Shown here: positions 1 to 5,873 of the stretch, one piece after another | Numbering within the stretch: the stretch's first letter is position 1 | Layout of the letters: each line of letters begins with the position of its first letter | Assembly: GCA_030149205.1 (NCBI GenBank) | Contig: JASBSB010000001.1 | Coordinates: forward strand, 600,001-632,000 | Direction: 5' to 3' | Length of the DNA stretch: 32,000 nt | Source of the DNA: Candidatus Heimdallarchaeota archaeon | Lineage (GTDB): Archaea; Asgardarchaeota; Heimdallarchaeia; Heimdallarchaeales; Kariarchaeaceae | The notes under the pieces: model-generated | What the model was told of the DNA's origin: nothing | The model's database searches: none | What the model saw: only the letters and a program-made list of their open reading frames with translations | Made by a program: the position numbers and the translations under genes

Positions 1-587
1 ACGGGTTCATCTAAAAGAAGTAAGGACGGAGAGGTCATCAATAATCGACCTATAGCAAGAAGTTTCTGCTGACCACCTGATATTTCACTTGCTAAATTAT
101 TCATAATATGTGCAATTTCAAGGAAATCTAGTATTTCAAGTGCCTTAACAATGTTTTGTGCCTCCTGTCTTTTCCAAAGAGGTGATCCTAGAAAGCCCCA
201 AATTAGACTCTCTCCAATCTGTCTAGGGGGAGATACAAGCATGTTCTCCAAAACAGTCATATCAGGAAAATTTCTGGTGTGCTGAAAGGTTCTAACCATT
301 CCTTTAAGAGCAATAGACTCAGGAGCCATACCCCAAATATCATAACTTTCTGAACGCTTTCCTCTAAATCGTCGGAACAGTATATTTCCACTTTTAAGTT
401 CTGGTTTTAGAAACCCAGTAATCACATTAAAGAAGGTACTTTTTCCTGAACCGTTTGGGCCGATTAATGAGGTTAACTTCCCTTTCTGAACCACAACTGA
501 AGCACCATTAACAGCCTTAACCCCTGAAAAATACTTATGGATATTTTCAGCTTTAAAAACAAAATTATCTGATTCGTTTTCCATCAT
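1..587 (-). CDS. livG: Branched-chain amino acid ABC transporter ATP-binding protein (partial, runs off window start)
   Basis: Not in ORF track; translated by hand: MMENESDNFVFKAENIHKYFSGVKAVNG...GPNGSGKST (Walker A)...EISGGQQKLL (signature)...LLLLDEP (Walker B). ATGA overlap with livM stop. Confidence 0.92.
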   Translation of the reverse strand, partial: MMENESDNFVFKAENIHKYFSGVKAVNGASVVVQKGKLTSLIGPNGSGKSTFFNVITGFLKPELKSGNILFRRFRGKRSESYDIWGMAPESIALKGMVRTFQHTRNFPDMTVLENMLVSPPRQIGESLIWGFLGSPLWKRQEAQNIVKALEILDFLEIAHIMNNLASEISGGQQKLLAIGRLLMTSPSLLLLDEP

Positions 588-2290
588 TTCATTTCCTCCT
601 CGTAATTTGAAGATTTTTCATCTGTATTCTCAGTAAATTCCAAACCCCTTAAATTTTGATGCCTAAAAGAGTTATCACCAGCAATACTCATAAAAAAGGA
701 GAGAATTCTAACTAAATAGCTCTTTGAACCCTCAGTGTCTAAGCTAAGCTGCTTTAATAATTTCAGGTATCTTTCATTTTGATTCTTCTGTTCTGGGAAT
801 ATTCCCTCAGGAGCAAAAATCAGGAACAAAATTAAAACTACACCAACTACTATTAGCGAGAAGTTAACAAAATCAAATCTTAATCCTGCAAAAATACCAC
901 CCACATTTTGAAGATCACCCATTTTCGATGCTGCTTGAAATAATAACTGAATAAGAAAGGCACCAAATATAGCACCGATGTTATTTGCTGTTCCTCCTAC
1001 TATAATCATAATATACAAGGTAAAGGTTGTTGTGGGTGTGTATCCATCAGGAGTAATTGACCCAACCTGATAAGCCAAAAGAACACCAAAAAAACCAGCG
1101 AACATATTTGACAAGGCTAAACCTTTAATCCTATAACCAAGTAGACTTTTTCCAACAGAAATAGCACTTGTATCATCATCTCTAAAGGCCCTCATAGTTC
1201 TCCCAAAAGGTGATTTTACAATATCCTCAATTAACTTGTATGAAATAAGTAATACACCAACTGCTAAAAGCATATTATACCAATTTGAAAGTGTGGTTGA
1301 AAGTGAGTTCACTGGAAAGACAAACCCAAGTACATAACTAAATATAATGTACAACATAAAAACGATGATGGTTTTGAGAAAATCCCAGTGGATATCATAC
1401 TTTCTGAGAAGAGCGAACTTATAATTTCTTTGGAAAAAAAGTAAAATCAATAATATTAATATTGATAGATCTATCGCTCCATTTGGTGATCCTCCAAAAG
1501 AGCCAAAGAAGTTTAAAACAATAACAATTATTCCCAAAAAAATTGTGAAGTTGATTAAACCATTTTCTACTTCTTCTTGAATCCCACCTTTGGTCACGAA
1601 AGGTTCACTAATTGAATATGGAACAGCATAAATTTTTGAATATTTCTGATTTAGATAAATAAAATACAAGAATATTAAAATTAATGTTATAAGAATAATA
1701 GATATTGAATTATTATTTAAAAGAATATTTTGTAAGAAGGTAGTATTTGAAGGATATAGCCTATCAATAGGAAGGGGGACTGCAAAACCTTCAAATCCAC
1801 CGAGTTGATGTTGATTTCGTACTGTTTCCCGGATAATTTCACCAACAACGATGGTTACTATAGCAAAATAATCCTCTTTTAATCTTAGGGATGGCAAGGT
1901 TAGTATGATTCCAAAAACCCCGGCTGAAATACCTGCAAAGATAAATGATAGAATTTCATTCACTCCAGAATTTACGAATAGGATATAAGAGTAGGCACCC
2001 ACTGCTATAAACCCAATCTTTCCAAAATTAGGTAGTCCAAGGAAGCCTACCTCCATATTCAAAGAAAGACTCAATCCTGCAAATATTGCAATAAATGTAA
2101 TGGTGAAGGTGAAATAATCCAAGTTTGTTGACCCTCCAAATACCAACGGTAGCACGAAGGATAAAAAGATCAGGCCACCCATAATTATTGCTAAGGTATA
2201 GTTTACTGTCTGAGATTTTGGGTTGTATTCTGCTTTGGCAATTATATCTTCTACTGTTTGATTTAATTTTTCGTTAATCATGTTATTCAC
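584..2290 (-). CDS. livM: Branched-chain amino acid ABC transporter permease, enlarged by an internal membrane insertion
   Basis: LSLNMEVGFLGLPNFGKIGF, LRLKEDYFAIVT, SPFGRTMRAFRDD, IIVGGTAN, PEGIFPE LivM motifs; 568 aa. Confidence 0.9.
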   Translation of the reverse strand: MNNMINEKLNQTVEDIIAKAEYNPKSQTVNYTLAIIMGGLIFLSFVLPLVFGGSTNLDYFTFTITFIAIFAGLSLSLNMEVGFLGLPNFGKIGFIAVGAYSYILFVNSGVNEILSFIFAGISAGVFGIILTLPSLRLKEDYFAIVTIVVGEIIRETVRNQHQLGGFEGFAVPLPIDRLYPSNTTFLQNILLNNNSISIILITLILIFLYFIYLNQKYSKIYAVPYSISEPFVTKGGIQEEVENGLINFTIFLGIIVIVLNFFGSFGGSPNGAIDLSILILLILLFFQRNYKFALLRKYDIHWDFLKTIIVFMLYIIFSYVLGFVFPVNSLSTTLSNWYNMLLAVGVLLISYKLIEDIVKSPFGRTMRAFRDDDTSAISVGKSLLGYRIKGLALSNMFAGFFGVLLAYQVGSITPDGYTPTTTFTLYIMIIVGGTANNIGAIFGAFLIQLLFQAASKMGDLQNVGGIFAGLRFDFVNFSLIVVGVVLILFLIFAPEGIFPEQKNQNERYLKLLKQLSLDTEGSKSYLVRILSFFMSIAGDNSFRHQNLRGLEFTENTDEKSSNYEEEMK

Positions 2291-2291
2291 C

Positions 2292-3515
2292 TCAAAGTTT
2301 TGATCCTGGATCTACCAATCCAAATATACCTCTAGGTCGAAATATAAGTACGACAATAATCATCAAAAATGGTCCCACATTGCTCCAATCAGCTGAGGGA
2401 TTCCAGAATACAGTATAACTTAAAGGAGATCCAGGAGGAACGTTATTTGCGATTATTCCATTGATCATTATCGTTAAAGTTTGAATTCCTGCGATAATGA
2501 AGCCACTAATTAAAGTTCCCTCGAATGAATCAAAGCCGCCTAAAATAACAACTGCAAAAATTATCAGTAATTGACTAAACCCTGCAAAAGGTACAACTGC
2601 TCCACTACTAAAAAGTAACACACCTCCAAATGCAGTTATTCCACCAGAAATAAACCAAGTCCAGTAGGTGATTGATTGTGTGTTTATACCTGAGATTTCA
2701 GATAGATCTTCATCATCTGAAGTTGCTCTCATTGAGATACCCAAATATGTCTTTTTGAAGAGGAATTGTAATGTAAGAACCATAATAACCATTGATAATA
2801 TACTAATGACTCCAATGTTACTTACGGTCAATGTTTTTGATGACCCAAAAATTCCAAATGTGGTAATATCATTAAAGGGGGATGCCAAAAATGACCCAAC
2901 TAACGGTACTGTTAATAAAAAGTTTCCAATACTCAACCAAAAACTTGGTAGGGGCAATACCATTATTACAGGAACTCCCCCACCTGGTAAGAATTGTTGT
3001 ATTACGTGTCTAATTATCAAACCAACTCCAATGGAAGCTACCATTAATGAAAGTGGTGTTGCTTTTCTCTTTGCTAGTGGCCCAAATACTAGTAATTCAC
3101 TTAATATTGCAATAAGCCCACCCATTATAAATGCGAAAAATAGGAGGGATAATAAATTATTAAAGAAGAGGTTTAAATTCAGGTCGTTAATCGCTACAAC
3201 GGTATATAACCCTACTGTGAGCAACTCTGCATGCGCGAAATTCGCGAATTTCTTAACACGTATACTTAAAGTTAGACCAACACTCACCAAAATGAATTGA
3301 GAGGCTTTAACCAGGGTAAAATAAACCTGGGCCACGTAATTCTGTCTATATAGATCTACCACAGTCAATAAATAAGAACTTACTAAAATAAAAACTGAAA
3401 TAATTAAGAGAGAGTAGATTAGTTCTTTTCTCTTTCTCATTTCTGCGATCGCTTGGTCAATATTCACTTCTTCTGGATATAATAATTCTTCATCTAAATC
3501 AATTGCATCTGTCAT
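2292..3515 (-). CDS. livH: Branched-chain amino acid ABC transporter permease
   Basis: GLTLSIRVKKFANFAHAE, TYLGISMRATSDD, VILGGFDSFEG, FRPRGIFG LivH motifs. Confidence 0.9.
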   Translation of the reverse strand: MTDAIDLDEELLYPEEVNIDQAIAEMRKRKELIYSLLIISVFILVSSYLLTVVDLYRQNYVAQVYFTLVKASQFILVSVGLTLSIRVKKFANFAHAELLTVGLYTVVAINDLNLNLFFNNLLSLLFFAFIMGGLIAILSELLVFGPLAKRKATPLSLMVASIGVGLIIRHVIQQFLPGGGVPVIMVLPLPSFWLSIGNFLLTVPLVGSFLASPFNDITTFGIFGSSKTLTVSNIGVISILSMVIMVLTLQFLFKKTYLGISMRATSDDEDLSEISGINTQSITYWTWFISGGITAFGGVLLFSSGAVVPFAGFSQLLIIFAVVILGGFDSFEGTLISGFIIAGIQTLTIMINGIIANNVPPGSPLSYTVFWNPSADWSNVGPFLMIIVVLIFRPRGIFGLVDPGSKL

Positions 3516-3519
3516 TTGG

Positions 3520-4269
3520 TCACCTCTTTCCTAAAAACATCTCCCCAATTTTCGGATTATGCAGTATATTTTCTGCTTTATCCGAGTGGGCAACTTCACC
3601 AGACACAAAAACATATGCTCGGTCACTGATTTGCAATGCCCTGGTTGCTCTTTGTTCCACTAATAAAATGCTTAAACCAAGTTTCATTAGAGTTTGAATT
3701 TCGTGGAAAATCACATCAGCTAAAACAGGAGCTAAAGCTGCACTAGGTTCATCTAACAACAAAATTTTTGGTTCAGACATTAATGCCTTACCAAGCGCTA
3801 GCATTTGCCTTTCTCCTCCAGAAAGTAAAGCGGCACTCTGACCAGTTCTAGATTTAAGCCTTGGAAAAATATCATAAATTTCTTCTACTTTTTTCTTGAA
3901 GTTATAAGAAGGGTCTTTACGTTTCACGAATCCCCCAATTTTCAGATTTTCTTCAACGGTTAACGTTGGAAATACATTAGAAACTTGAGGAACATAACTC
4001 AATGGAATCCCTGATGTTACAATTTGGTAGGGCTTTAGGGAAGTAACATTAAAGTTTTGATTTTCCTTAGGGTCAGCTATACTTATATTTCCTGACCAAC
4101 AGGGAACAAGCCCTATGATGGTCTTAACAAAAGTTGACTTACCGCTCCCATTTGGCCCAATTATTGTAACAAGCTCACCTTCCTTTACCTCAACATTGAT
4201 CCCATGAAGGATTTCTAGCTTCCCATAACCACTAACAACATCAGTAGCTTTCAAAATTGTCTCTGCCAT
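3520..4269 (-). CDS. livF: Branched-chain amino acid ABC transporter ATP-binding protein
   Basis: GYGKLEILHGI, GPNGSGKST, LSGGERQMLALGKALM, LLLDEPS, LLVEQ. Start moved from 4341 to ATG 4269 (MAETILK) where homology begins. Confidence 0.93.
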   Translation of the reverse strand: MAETILKATDVVSGYGKLEILHGINVEVKEGELVTIIGPNGSGKSTFVKTIIGLVPCWSGNISIADPKENQNFNVTSLKPYQIVTSGIPLSYVPQVSNVFPTLTVEENLKIGGFVKRKDPSYNFKKKVEEIYDIFPRLKSRTGQSAALLSGGERQMLALGKALMSEPKILLLDEPSAALAPVLADVIFHEIQTLMKLGLSILLVEQRATRALQISDRAYVFVSGEVAHSDKAENILHNPKIGEMFLGKR

Positions 4270-4447
4270 AGTTAAATCTCTTTTTATAAAAGAAGAAGGG
4301 GAAGTGGGTTTATAACAATTGCTCTTTTCTATGATGTACAATACCTAATTTTGTGTTAAAATAATACGTATAAATTAAAATTTCAACTAAATACAGTAAT
4401 AATATTTTTAAGTATCAGCTAAGATATCGTATCAACTTGTTCGATAT

Positions 4448-4463
4448 TGTTAAAGATTTAACA
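4448..4463. promoter_or_regulatory. Perfect inverted repeat TGTTAAA-GA-TTTAACA, candidate operator in the divergent livF/SBP promoter
   Basis: 7-2-7 palindrome ending 18 nt before the SBP ATG, just upstream of SD-like AAGGTGA (4469-4475). Confidence 0.4.
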
Positions 4464-4481
4464 TGAACAAGGTGATTTATT

Positions 4482-5873
4482 ATGAACAGAAATCAGAAAA
4501 TTATCTTAGCGATTATAGTATCACTAAGTTTTTTGGTTGTACCGTCCGCAAGCGTTGCACAATTCAATGCCCATGAAACGGTACATCCTCAACAGACTAC
4601 TATCAAGTTAGGTGGTCTCTTCCCTCTCTCTGGTAGATTAGCTGGAGGAGGTGTAGAGAGAAGAGCTGCTGCACAGATGGCGATTGATCAAATTAATGCC
4701 AATACGTCATTTTTGAGCAACGTAAAGTTAGAGTTATTGGTTAAAGATACCAAGACTGATCCAGCAACAGGAACTACGGTAGCAAATGAGGCAATCAGTG
4801 CAGGAGTAGTTGGAATTATCGGTGCTGCATCATCTTCAGTATCTAAGGCAATTGCAACTGTAGCAGCCCAGAAAAAGATACCACAAATTTCTTATTCTTC
4901 AACCAGTCCTTCACTCTCAGATAAACAGTTATATCCTTATTTTATGAGAGTTGTGCCTCCAGATTCTCAGCAAGGTAGTGCTTTAGCCCATATCATTCAA
5001 AATTTCAAATTTACTGATATTGCAACAATCTCAACCTCTGATGATTATGGTTTAGGAGGTATAGGTGTTGTAGAAAATGTCTCCAAAACCTTAGGAATAA
5101 ATGTCGCCACAAAACAGAGATTTACCCCTGGTGCTGCAGATGTAACCACACAATTACAAGCAATCAAAGATTCTGGAGCAAAGGTCATTGTAATTAATAC
5201 AGTGATTCAAGATGCAATTACTGTCTTTTCTCAGATGTCAAAGGTCGGTATTTCTCCAAAAAATGGATACACATGGTTTGGAACTGATGGACCAACACAA
5301 GAAGCAGTCTTTGCAAATGATACAAAAATCAAAGATGCCCTCCAAGGAATGGTTGGTACAGCTCCGAATAGAGGATCCGGTTCATCCTTTGATGCATTCG
5401 TTAACCTTTGGAAGACTTGTAATGGAAAGACTTCTACTGATTATGCAGGATGTGGAGATACCACACCAAACACCTATGCACCTTTTGCATATGATGCAGT
5501 CTATGCATTTGCACATGCAATTGACAAGATGTTAAAAGCCAACCAAGCAGTTAACGATGGAGCAAAGTTACTTGAGACCTTAAAAGGTCTAAAGTTTCAA
5601 GGTGCGACCGGTCTTATCACTTTTGACAAGAATGGTGATAGAATTGGAGATTACAATGTTCTTAACCTACAAGGAACAGTTTTCAAAGTTGTGGGTATCT
5701 ATAACTTAAATACTGGACTTAAATTAACTGGTACAATCACATGGGGAACTGGAAATACTGCGGTTCCATCATATGCTAAATTGGGTGGTGCACCTGGTTT
5801 TGAACTTCCAATGATCGCGTTTGGATTAATAAGTATCATTGCAATTATAAGATTTAGAAAGAGAGAAAACTAG
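4482..5873 (+). CDS. ABC transporter substrate-binding protein, Venus-flytrap (ANF_receptor/LivK) fold, with signal peptide and PGF-CTERM anchor
   Basis: N-terminal hydrophobic signal; GGLFP, IPQISYSSTSPSLSD, FMRVVPPD, YDAVYAFAHA, FQGATGLITFDKNGDR; C-terminal PGF + TM + RFRKREN. Divergent from the liv operon. Confidence 0.9.
   Translation: MNRNQKIILAIIVSLSFLVVPSASVAQFNAHETVHPQQTTIKLGGLFPLSGRLAGGGVERRAAAQMAIDQINANTSFLSNVKLELLVKDTKTDPATGTTVANEAISAGVVGIIGAASSSVSKAIATVAAQKKIPQISYSSTSPSLSDKQLYPYFMRVVPPDSQQGSALAHIIQNFKFTDIATISTSDDYGLGGIGVVENVSKTLGINVATKQRFTPGAADVTTQLQAIKDSGAKVIVINTVIQDAITVFSQMSKVGISPKNGYTWFGTDGPTQEAVFANDTKIKDALQGMVGTAPNRGSGSSFDAFVNLWKTCNGKTSTDYAGCGDTTPNTYAPFAYDAVYAFAHAIDKMLKANQAVNDGAKLLETLKGLKFQGATGLITFDKNGDRIGDYNVLNLQGTVFKVVGIYNLNTGLKLTGTITWGTGNTAVPSYAKLGGAPGFELPMIAFGLISIIAIIRFRKREN

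Follow-up and report, generated by a model that had tools for sequence, protein, structure and literature searches.

The view, dating from 1993, that the ligand domains of the metabotropic glutamate (mGluR), GABA-B, calcium-sensing and taste receptors stem from LIVBP-type bacterial periplasmic binding proteins rests on about 20% identity, and the searchable literature derives the class C flytraps from bacterial periplasmic binding proteins. A gene from an Asgard archaeon raises the question of whether these domains have closer prokaryotic kin and, if so, in which direction the domain was passed on. This gene, coding for a substrate-binding protein of 463 amino acids (aa), here named P0001, lies on a Candidatus Heimdallarchaeota contig (JASBSB010000001.1, assembly GCA_030149205.1) within the 32,000-nucleotide stretch of DNA analysed as a whole (positions 600,001 to 632,000), referred to below as the window. 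An initial annotation, made from the letters of the window only, had located the open reading frame (ORF) exactly and had claimed for its product a similarity to the flytraps of class C G-protein-coupled receptors (GPCRs) beyond the generic likeness to LivK. By sequence comparison, no prokaryotic proteins known so far are closer to the flytrap domain of eukaryotic receptors than P0001 and its relatives from Heimdall archaea. The gene and its parts are the following.

4482..5873, + strand: substrate-binding protein gene (P0001), 463 aa (ORF and translation; Pfam; AlphaFold2, AF2, model)
4482..4559, + strand: putative Sec-type signal peptide, about aa 1-26 (read from the sequence; cleavage site predicted)
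4587..5771, + strand: two-lobed Venus-flytrap (type-I binding protein) domain, aa 36-430 (limits from Pfam and the PDB sequence search)
Within the flytrap domain, aa 36-430: amino-acid motif S118, T141, R156, D161, Q164, Y189, G190 and D269, plus R60 and Y332
5787..5864, + strand: putative C-terminal sorting and anchor signal, aa 436-461, made of PGF, a hydrophobic helix and a basic tail (NCBIfam; AF2 helix)

Similarity to eukaryotic receptor domains

The Pfam profile ANF_receptor (PF01094) matched P0001 with 279 bits (cut-off 25.4) over profile positions 2-353 of 353, Peripla_BP_6 and Peripla_BP_5 gave 174 and 47 bits, and the ANF_receptor and Peripla_BP_6 domains spanned aa 40-399. The NCBIfam model of the high-affinity branched-chain amino acid binding proteins LivJ/K (NF011933) reached only 81.9 bits, far under its cut-off of 477, and P0001 is therefore not a LivJ/K equivalog. 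A sequence search of all PDB chains returned 233 matches, the best 60 of which were all eukaryotic, comprising plant GLR3.4, mGluR8, 7, 3, 4, 6, 5, 2 and 1, GABA-B1 and T1R1; bacterial LivK was absent among these best 60. The highest scores were those of GLR3.4 (128 bits, E = 3e-36) and mGluR8 (114 bits), GABA-B1 reaching 92 bits. The alignment with mGluR8 revealed long identical runs at AIDQIN, KIPQISY.ST.P.LSD and RVVPPDS, and every motif on which the initial annotation had relied was found in P0001, namely GGLFP, AIDQIN, IPQISYSSTSPSLSD, RVVPPD, YDAVYAFAHAIDKM and FQGATGLITFDKNGDRIGDY.

A paralogue encoded in the same genome (L002) was used as a control. This protein scored almost equally with ANF_receptor and Peripla_BP_6 (156 and 153 bits), its best PDB matches were bacterial Leu/Ile/Val-binding proteins (3td9, 96 bits), and mGluR8 was matched with 68 bits over 125 residues only. 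Since the paralogue behaves in these searches like an ordinary LivK, the resemblance of P0001 to the eukaryotic domains stands well above that of a typical archaeal binding protein, and the claim of a similarity exceeding the generic one was thus upheld.

Relatives and phylogenetic placement

When 1.84 billion cluster representatives were scanned exhaustively with HMMER, 209 proteins were retrieved at E < 1e-30, and the top 150 of them were Heimdall-type binding proteins of 440-530 aa together with long fusion proteins that combine other domains with a single flytrap or with several, in some cases more than ten. According to Pfam, the fusion partners were 7tm_3, phosphodiesterase, protein kinase and Ephrin_rec_like, the seven-transmembrane (7TM) domains being marked by a home-made hidden Markov model in a first round and by Pfam scans. 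The long relatives that could be identified were eukaryotic, and came from Vannella (MMETSP0168), Endostelium, Thecamonas, Euglena, Rhodelphis and the coral Pocillopora; further eukaryotic signs were a poly(A)-tailed transcript, a contig carrying Rpb1 and Ric8, and a contig with an intron-split neighbour gene. The amoebozoan 7tm_3 receptors shared 37-38% identity across 86-93% of P0001, and identity to protist receptors (amoebozoan and apusozoan) reached 44%, within a range of about 37-44%. Neither the exhaustive scan nor a profile search revealed a bacterial or non-Heimdall archaeal member of the clade described below, and the profile search gave no non-Asgard prokaryote at E < 1e-60.

Some of these relatives had unusual architectures. 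P0050 and P0055, of Vannella type (amoebozoan), carry a flytrap, an LDL-receptor-A-like Cys/Asp motif and then 7tm_3; P0233 is a flytrap-kinase protein with an intein-like insert; and there are giant proteins with at least 10 flytrap repeats, which reach 3927 aa (P0139). For P0176, no contig of origin was found.

When the comparison was made from the eukaryotic side, the best prokaryotic BLAST hit fell within the archaeal clade of P0001 for 43 out of 43 flytrap domains, metazoan mGluR-like ones included. The median scores of these 43 domains were 184 bits with the clade of P0001, 109 bits with a second archaeal type, found in Hodarchaeales (Hod type), and 80 bits with ordinary proteins. In a set of 72,556 bacterial plasmids, a metazoan mGluR-like flytrap had no match at E <= 1e-3, whereas P0001 matched 643 records with at most 117 bits; as P0001 reaches plasmid proteins that the metazoan flytrap does not, it can be seen as a sequence bridge between the bacterial and eukaryotic proteins.

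Maximum-likelihood (ML) trees were inferred with IQ-TREE under LG+C20+F+G4 (posterior mean site frequency approximation, PMSF) from near-complete flytrap domains, near-duplicates being dropped, in sets of 90, 50 and 44 rows, several of which were long-branched and deviant in composition. In all three sets, the Heimdall binding proteins and the eukaryotic flytraps formed one clade (support 100/100), its stem measuring 0.57-0.95 substitutions per site, and the ordinary prokaryotic binding proteins, including the same-genome paralogue, were placed on the other side of this 100/100 branch. Two archaeal groups were contained in the joint clade, one of Kari type, which includes P0001 (99/94), and the Hodarchaeales type (100/100). 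Forcing the Kari-type clade onto the nearest ordinary group, alone or with the Hod type, cost 91 and 87 units of log-likelihood and was rejected by the approximately unbiased (AU) test with p = 6e-5 and 1.5e-5, respectively, the groups for such tests having been set partly after the first tree was known. Hence, among the prokaryotes sampled, the lineage of P0001 was found only in Heimdallarchaeia, as the Kari-type and Hodarchaeales-type clades, and it belongs to one clade with eukaryotic ANF_receptor flytraps, namely those of class C GPCRs, of protist phosphodiesterase and kinase fusions, and of metazoan mGluR-like receptors. P0001 neither nests among ordinary LivK proteins nor lies far from the eukaryotic flytraps, two outcomes that would have contradicted the proposed kinship.

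Fold and ligand-binding residues

The AF2 model of P0001, built on an alignment of 43 sequences, had a mean pLDDT of 91.5 and a pTM of 0.83, and showed the two-lobed fold followed by a terminal helix at aa 441-462. The top 50 PDB matches obtained by Foldseek were all mGluR2, 3, 5, 8 or GABA-B1 (E = 1e-32 to 1e-29). Nevertheless, an exhaustive structural alignment by VIA-align gave Z = 42.7 for Drosophila GABA-B, 42.1 for T. maritima LivK, 41.7 for AtGLR3.4 and 40.9 for mGluR3, and because these scores tie, with GABA-B, LivK and GLR3.4 lying within one Z unit, the fold by itself cannot tell a class C-like from a LivK-like protein and its comparison was rejected as a discriminator. The two are separable only by sequence and phylogeny. 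The eukaryotic chains aligned over approximately 380 residues (to about model residue 438) and the bacterial ones over approximately 345 (to about residue 410).

The residues numbered by the initial annotation (R60, S118, T141, D161, Y189, D269, C313, C324 and Y332) were all correctly assigned. The first six are the putative counterparts of R78, S165, T188, D208, Y236 and D318 of mGluR1, whose glutamate-contact lysine K409 is presumably replaced by Tyr (Y332) in P0001. In the 43-sequence alignment, S118 and D161 were invariant, and R60, R156, Y189 and D269 were conserved in at least 40 sequences. P0001 also carries, by regular-expression match from S118 to D269, the whole 8-residue amino-acid-binding flytrap motif of Acher and Bertrand, S-x22-[TS]-x13,14-R-x4-D-x2-Q-x24,25-Y-[GA]-x74,84-[ED], as quoted in PMC12965686. 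The same motif was present in 10 of 21 ordinary outgroup binding proteins, and it is consequently a mark of amino-acid binding and not of class C kinship. The ligand residues are thus present as claimed, and their use as class-C-specific evidence was discarded.

A similar outcome was obtained for the cysteine segment, which had been described as lying where the mGluRs have a Cys-containing lobe-2 insert. The C313/C324 pair occurred together in 19 of the 43 aligned sequences, all of them archaeal and restricted to part of the archaeal clade, and 9 of the 9 nearest eukaryotic domains had a gap at the C313 column and a residue other than Cys at that of C324. The pair exists in P0001; its homology with the mGluR Cys loop was rejected because the nearest eukaryotic relatives lack it, and the pair is lineage-specific.

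The tied Z scores of T. maritima LivK and GABA-B, as well as the motif borne by many ordinary binding proteins, are what would be expected if P0001 were an ordinary LivK-type protein whose class C resemblance is a generic similarity of the superfamily. This explanation deserves next to no credence, given that the placement was rejected by the AU test, that the paralogue of the same genome gave the contrasting, LivK-like result, that the best 60 PDB matches were exclusively eukaryotic, and that the close relatives in the exhaustive scan were only Heimdall and eukaryotic proteins.

Gene neighbourhood and proposed function

The initial annotation had also described the gene as divergent from a complete importer, and this arrangement was verified. 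On the opposite strand, livG, two BPD_transp_2 permease genes and livF were found, the last of them cut by the window edge and complete in the genome, as follows.

4342..4481: A+T-rich intergenic region, 140 bp, between the divergent binding-protein and livG genes (read from the sequence; both promoters presumably lie there)
3520..4341, - strand: livG-type ATP-binding cassette (ABC) ATPase, 273 aa (Pfam ABC_tran; orthologues adjoin the binding-protein gene in relatives)
2292..3515, - strand: branched-chain-type ABC permease, 407 aa (Pfam BPD_transp_2)
584..2290, - strand: second permease, LivM-like with extensions, 568 aa (Pfam BPD_transp_2)
1..587, - strand: livF-type ABC ATPase, truncated by the window edge; 274 aa when whole
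Outside the window, - strand: class I/II aminotransferase gene, 27 nt 3' of livF and probably in the same operon (L065 394-1737, G000:C4:598393-599736)

The divergent linkage of the binding-protein gene and livG was observed in at least 7 related Kari-type loci or genomes. In at least 8 Hod-type loci livG also adjoins the binding-protein gene, and where checked (L024 and L025) the binding-protein gene, livG and a permease gene were co-directional. Because the livG/permease arrangement recurs in relatives, P0001 is most likely a working receptor of an amino-acid importer and not a GPCR, in agreement with the transport role previously put forward from the gene order. With the HAAT family, P0001 shares a Peripla_BP_6 domain and the two BPD_transp_2 permeases and two ABC ATPases encoded alongside. 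With the class C GPCRs it has in common an ANF_receptor-type flytrap that clusters with theirs, with no 7tm_3 following it: the protein lacks a signalling domain and ends 33 residues past the flytrap with a single helix, and no 7tm_3 above cut-off was found in its own genome or in 83 Heimdallarchaeia genomes.

Both ends of P0001 would suit an anchored extracellular protein. The N-terminus, read by eye, shows a basic start, a hydrophobic core and SVA ahead of Q, and in the AF2 model aa 4-15 form a helix, behind which lies a linker of low confidence at aa 21-29. The C-terminal 26 residues matched Heimdall-CTERM (NF045529) with 21.6 bits (E = 2e-4), slightly below the 24-bit cut-off, and PGF was conserved across the alignment. 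The genome carries one gene of the exosortase/archaeosortase family (L048, G000:C2:525029-525298), which matched TIGR04178 over its cut-off with 40 bits; Pfam Exosortase_EpsH had no match in this genome, but it missed the Haloferax control too, and TIGR04178 was used instead. These features suggest that the surface anchoring of P0001 may depend on an archaeosortase.

A mechanism resting at every step on homology and synteny can be proposed, in which P0001 would be exported by means of its signal peptide and held on the cell surface by the Heimdall-type C-terminal anchor, probably after archaeosortase processing. The two lobes would close on an L-alpha-amino acid, which would be handed to the complex of LivG, the two permeases and LivF encoded divergently alongside. 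From the conserved R60, the substrate might be guessed to be acidic or polar. The imported amino acid might then be catabolised, and its uptake would be linked to amino-acid catabolism by the aminotransferase gene placed 27 nt downstream of livF, at the end of the operon.

In certain relatives the flytrap seems to stand apart from any importer, as expected if P0001 were a surface sensor comparable to those orphan binding proteins whose signal goes to chemotaxis or two-component systems. Five loci (L016, L029, L034, L035 and L037) had no livG within 1.5 kb of the binding-protein gene, and the relative P0142 is an orphan beside a GAF/response-regulator gene. For P0001 itself, a sensor role in place of a transporter one is very improbable, considering that its gene lies 140 bp from livG in an arrangement kept in at least 7 related genomes, that it carries no signalling domain, and that 7tm_3 occurred in 0 of the 83 Heimdallarchaeia genomes. 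P0142 (L044 8001-9377), which is basal in the Kari-type clade, is divergent from the GAF/response-regulator gene with no ABC genes nearby, and its contig also bears genes for an Arf/Ras-like GTPase and a ubiquitin-conjugating E2. This could be a case of an Asgard archaeon employing the flytrap domain for sensing.

Two further Liv-type binding proteins are encoded in the genome of P0001, each with its own LivG paralogue: the control L002 (G000:C7:229488-230741) and L003 (G000:C2:663039-663998). The three Liv operon types of this genome recur in Hodarchaeales genomes. Inside the window, ORFs of 107 aa (5212-5535, + strand) and 210 aa (2668-3300, + strand) were detected in other frames of the binding-protein and permease genes, and both are most likely spurious.

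Host organism and distribution among Asgard archaea

The host genome has 3.3 Mb and is 93.5% complete, and the window sits on a contig of 995 kb. The genes near the importer are archaeal (a glycerol-1-phosphate-dehydrogenase-type Fe-ADH_2, PAC2 and FKBP26), and the genome encodes a true actin (445 bits). The closest named homologues, with 46-57% identity, came from Candidatus Kariarchaeaceae and Heimdallarchaeota (including HeimC2_26800 of LC_2), those of Hodarchaeales being more distant. The host is accordingly an Asgard archaeon of the class Heimdallarchaeia, and probably belongs to the Kariarchaeaceae.

Matches to P0001 at E <= 1e-20 were distributed over its own family (10 of 11 genomes), the sister family (2 of 3), one Hodarchaeales-type genus (6 of 22), a further family (1 of 2) and two strays, and none was found at this threshold in the 31 genomes of the neighbouring family of its own order. 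A Hod-type copy with an adjacent livG was located in a different Asgard class (L024, G397:C38:10599-11828), in a genome 91% complete with 9% contamination, and reflects either contamination or a transfer within Asgard.

The archaeal clades also included proteins of unusual length. P0116 (881 aa) and P0117 (878 aa) are metagenomic tandem double-flytraps placed inside the archaeal clade; with their two full flytraps (47% and 42% identity to P0001), they mirror among prokaryotes what is seen in the protist proteins with several flytraps. The Hod-type proteins P0202, P0197, P0228 and P0263 (640-660 aa) bear C-terminal extensions of about 200 aa without a Pfam match, and the Hod-type P0172 (871 aa) has a right-handed beta-helix/NosD domain after the flytrap.

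Comparison with known systems

The HAAT proteins of LivJ/LivK type (cluster B or type-I), such as T. maritima TM1135 (3td9) and E. coli LIVBP, have the same fold as P0001 (343 residues aligned with 3td9 at Z = 42.1), share the 8-residue motif and Peripla_BP_6 with it and, judging from the neighbouring livG, two permease and livF genes, would have a similar role. However, identity between P0001 and its bacterial homologues is only about 30%, and their scores do not exceed 117 bits; P0001 scores far higher with ANF_receptor, and the 100/100 branch sets it apart. In addition, P0001 aligns about 35-40 more residues with the eukaryotic flytraps than with the bacterial LivK-type proteins, and its putative anchor is C-terminal and of Heimdall type, while proteins of LivJ/LivK type are free in the periplasm or lipid-anchored at the N-terminus.

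The flytraps of class C GPCRs (mGluR1-8, GABA-B1, CaSR and T1R, as well as the 7tm_3 proteins of Vannella and Endostelium) share with P0001 the motifs GGLFP, AIDQIN, IPQISY.ST, RVVPPD and FD.NGD. They differ from P0001 in their 7TM domain, cysteine-rich linker and signalling module, all of which the archaeal protein lacks, and in that its gene lies beside an ABC transporter. The single best PDB sequence match was the amino-terminal domain of AtGLR3.4 (7lzh), which covered query residues 36-416 in two stretches; there the domain is the regulatory amino-terminal module of an ion channel, whereas P0001 would be a free-standing transporter receptor. Members of the same family, such as HeimC2_26800 (LC_2) and proteins from metagenome-assembled genomes of Kariarchaeaceae and Hodarchaeales, are already public and annotated only as "ABC transporter substrate-binding protein".

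A stand-alone flytrap has also been described in a eukaryote. EhVFT of Entamoeba histolytica is a membrane-tethered flytrap without 7TM, anchored by glycosylphosphatidylinositol (GPI), that acts in signalling and motility (PMC12965686). It resembles P0001 in being a single flytrap with a C-terminal membrane anchor or lipid signal and the same 8-residue motif, and differs in being eukaryotic, GPI-anchored and outside any ABC importer, this likeness being drawn from the published description (PMC12965686).

Direction of descent

The initial annotation had suggested that, in an Asgard host, P0001 could be close to the ancestor of the eukaryotic amino-acid receptors. The joint clade supports the kinship; as to the step to an ancestor, the ML trees nest the Kari-type clade in eukaryotes, without the monophyly of eukaryotes being rejected (p = 0.05-0.19). 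The ML order within the clade was (Hod type, (six long-branched eukaryotic multi-flytrap proteins, (Kari-type clade, other eukaryotes))), where the support values were 94/88 and 99/89. In the AU test made on 50 rows, eukaryote monophyly was not rejected (p = 0.09-0.19), and neither was the monophyly of the two archaeal clades (p = 0.12).

Evidence on the age of the operon was provided by its ATPase. In a LivG tree with two Kari-type and three Hod-type genomes, the LivGs encoded beside the eukaryote-like binding proteins of both lineages formed one group (92/96) that excludes two further types of LivG paralogue present in both lineages, and for this reason the operon seems to predate the divergence of the Kari and Hod lineages. 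Every outgroup is a binding protein of a transporter, so the clade goes back to a binding protein. An archaeal origin is favoured because of these outgroups, because both archaeal groups are linked to Liv genes, and because their LivG partners are orthologous; furthermore, the Kari-type clade is short-branched and near the centre of a star-like radiation, which fits a slowly evolving ancestral form. We therefore lean, by a little over an even chance, towards a lineage of archaeal origin, with the eukaryotic flytrap derived from a Heimdall-type transporter binding protein, which eukaryotes would later have fused to 7TM, kinase, cyclase or channel modules. The stronger proposition, that the flytraps of class C GPCRs, of the amino-terminal domains of GLR/iGluR and of the natriuretic-peptide/guanylate-cyclase receptors were inherited vertically from the amino-acid importer binding protein of a Heimdall-type ancestor, is more tentative, and we would place it somewhat below even.

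Several points weigh against an archaeal origin or the evidence gathered for it. Taken literally, the ML order nests the Kari-type clade in eukaryotes and thus suggests a transfer from a protist to an archaeon, and when the Hod type was removed, eukaryote monophyly became borderline (p = 0.051). Only 22 of 400 Asgard genomes matched P0001 at E <= 1e-20, and a narrow spread in Asgard together with an occurrence in many eukaryotic supergroups is a pattern that commonly leads to the view that a gene passed from eukaryotes to prokaryotes. The grouping of the LivGs would also be compatible with an in-place swap of the binding-protein gene. As to the sampling, the eukaryotic rows of the trees were picked by their similarity to P0001, many rows were labelled eukaryotic from domain fusions or contig features only, and the trees were built without plant GLR, iGluR amino-terminal domains, NPR, Dictyostelium, and human GABA-B and CaSR sequences.

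Because the branching order within the clade is weakly fixed, protist/Heimdall transfer has to be weighed. The ancestor of Kariarchaeaceae and the sister family could have gained a protist receptor flytrap that replaced the resident binding-protein gene of a Liv operon, the Hod-type clade being either a second transfer or a true archaeal homologue. The position of the Kari-type clade within eukaryotes, after the group of six sequences, was repeated across the row sets, and the borderline monophyly test, the narrow phyletic spread in Asgard and the high identity to amoebozoan and apusozoan receptors (38-44%) agree with such an event. Even so, we consider it unlikely. P0001 appears to be a full prokaryote-style binding protein, with signal peptide, Heimdall-CTERM anchor and a conserved livG neighbour, and its LivG is an orthologue of the one paired with Hod-type binding proteins; neither the monophyly of the archaeal clades nor that of eukaryotes was rejected; the short branches of the Kari-type clade near the centre of the radiation are as would be expected of a slowly evolving ancestral form; and the six early-branching eukaryotic rows, being long-branched multi-flytraps, may have been drawn rootward.

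The domain might also have been supplied laterally to eukaryotes around or after their last common ancestor, from a Heimdall-like archaeon or from an unsampled bacterium that also fed the Heimdall lineage. Eme and colleagues are said to have found in 2023 that eukaryotes branch beside Hodarchaeales in the species tree, and the order of the gene tree, with the Hod type outermost and the Kari type nearest to eukaryotes, conflicts with this expectation. The patchy Asgard distribution points the same way, as does the Hod-type copy in another Asgard class (G397), which indicates a mobile gene unless it is contamination. On the other hand, the exhaustive scan and the profile search contained no bacterial or non-Heimdall archaeal clade member, and the spread of the domain over Amoebozoa, Apusozoa, Metazoa, Euglenozoa and Rhodelphis suggests that the last eukaryotic common ancestor already possessed it. 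Lateral supply is accordingly regarded as distinctly improbable, and were it true, the Asgard link would be uninformative on the host ancestry of eukaryotes.

Returning to the archaeal origin, the best explanation of the data as a whole is probably that P0001 is an extracellular, membrane-anchored binding protein of a branched-chain/HAAT-type ABC importer of Heimdallarchaeia, joined in one clade with the eukaryotic flytraps, an origin in the archaeal lineage being preferred.

Implications

In the searchable literature, no paper was found that ties Heimdall binding proteins to the eukaryotic flytrap receptors, only general reviews of GPCR origin or unrelated papers being retrieved. P0001 belongs to a known kind of binding protein, of which it is a variant particular to Heimdall archaea, and its interest lies in its position beside the eukaryotic receptor domains: a free-standing binding protein, from the class of archaea regarded as nearest to eukaryotes, has 37-44% identity to protist class C receptors.

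If the archaeal origin were true, the inventory of parts that eukaryotes owe to Asgard archaea would gain a major sensing module, the passage from taking up nutrients to signalling could be dated to eukaryogenesis, and a tractable prokaryotic protein would become available for studying the ancestral ligand pocket of receptors that are drug targets. Vertical inheritance, if true, would moreover place the flytrap among the eukaryotic signature domains that come from Asgard archaea, where it has not been listed before, and displace the 30-year-old account of an origin from bacterial periplasmic binding proteins. Conversely, transfer from a protist to the Heimdall lineage would show clearly that an archaeon has put a receptor domain of eukaryotes to new use within a transporter. 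Under either direction of descent, the origin of the eukaryotic flytrap domain can now be tested directly.

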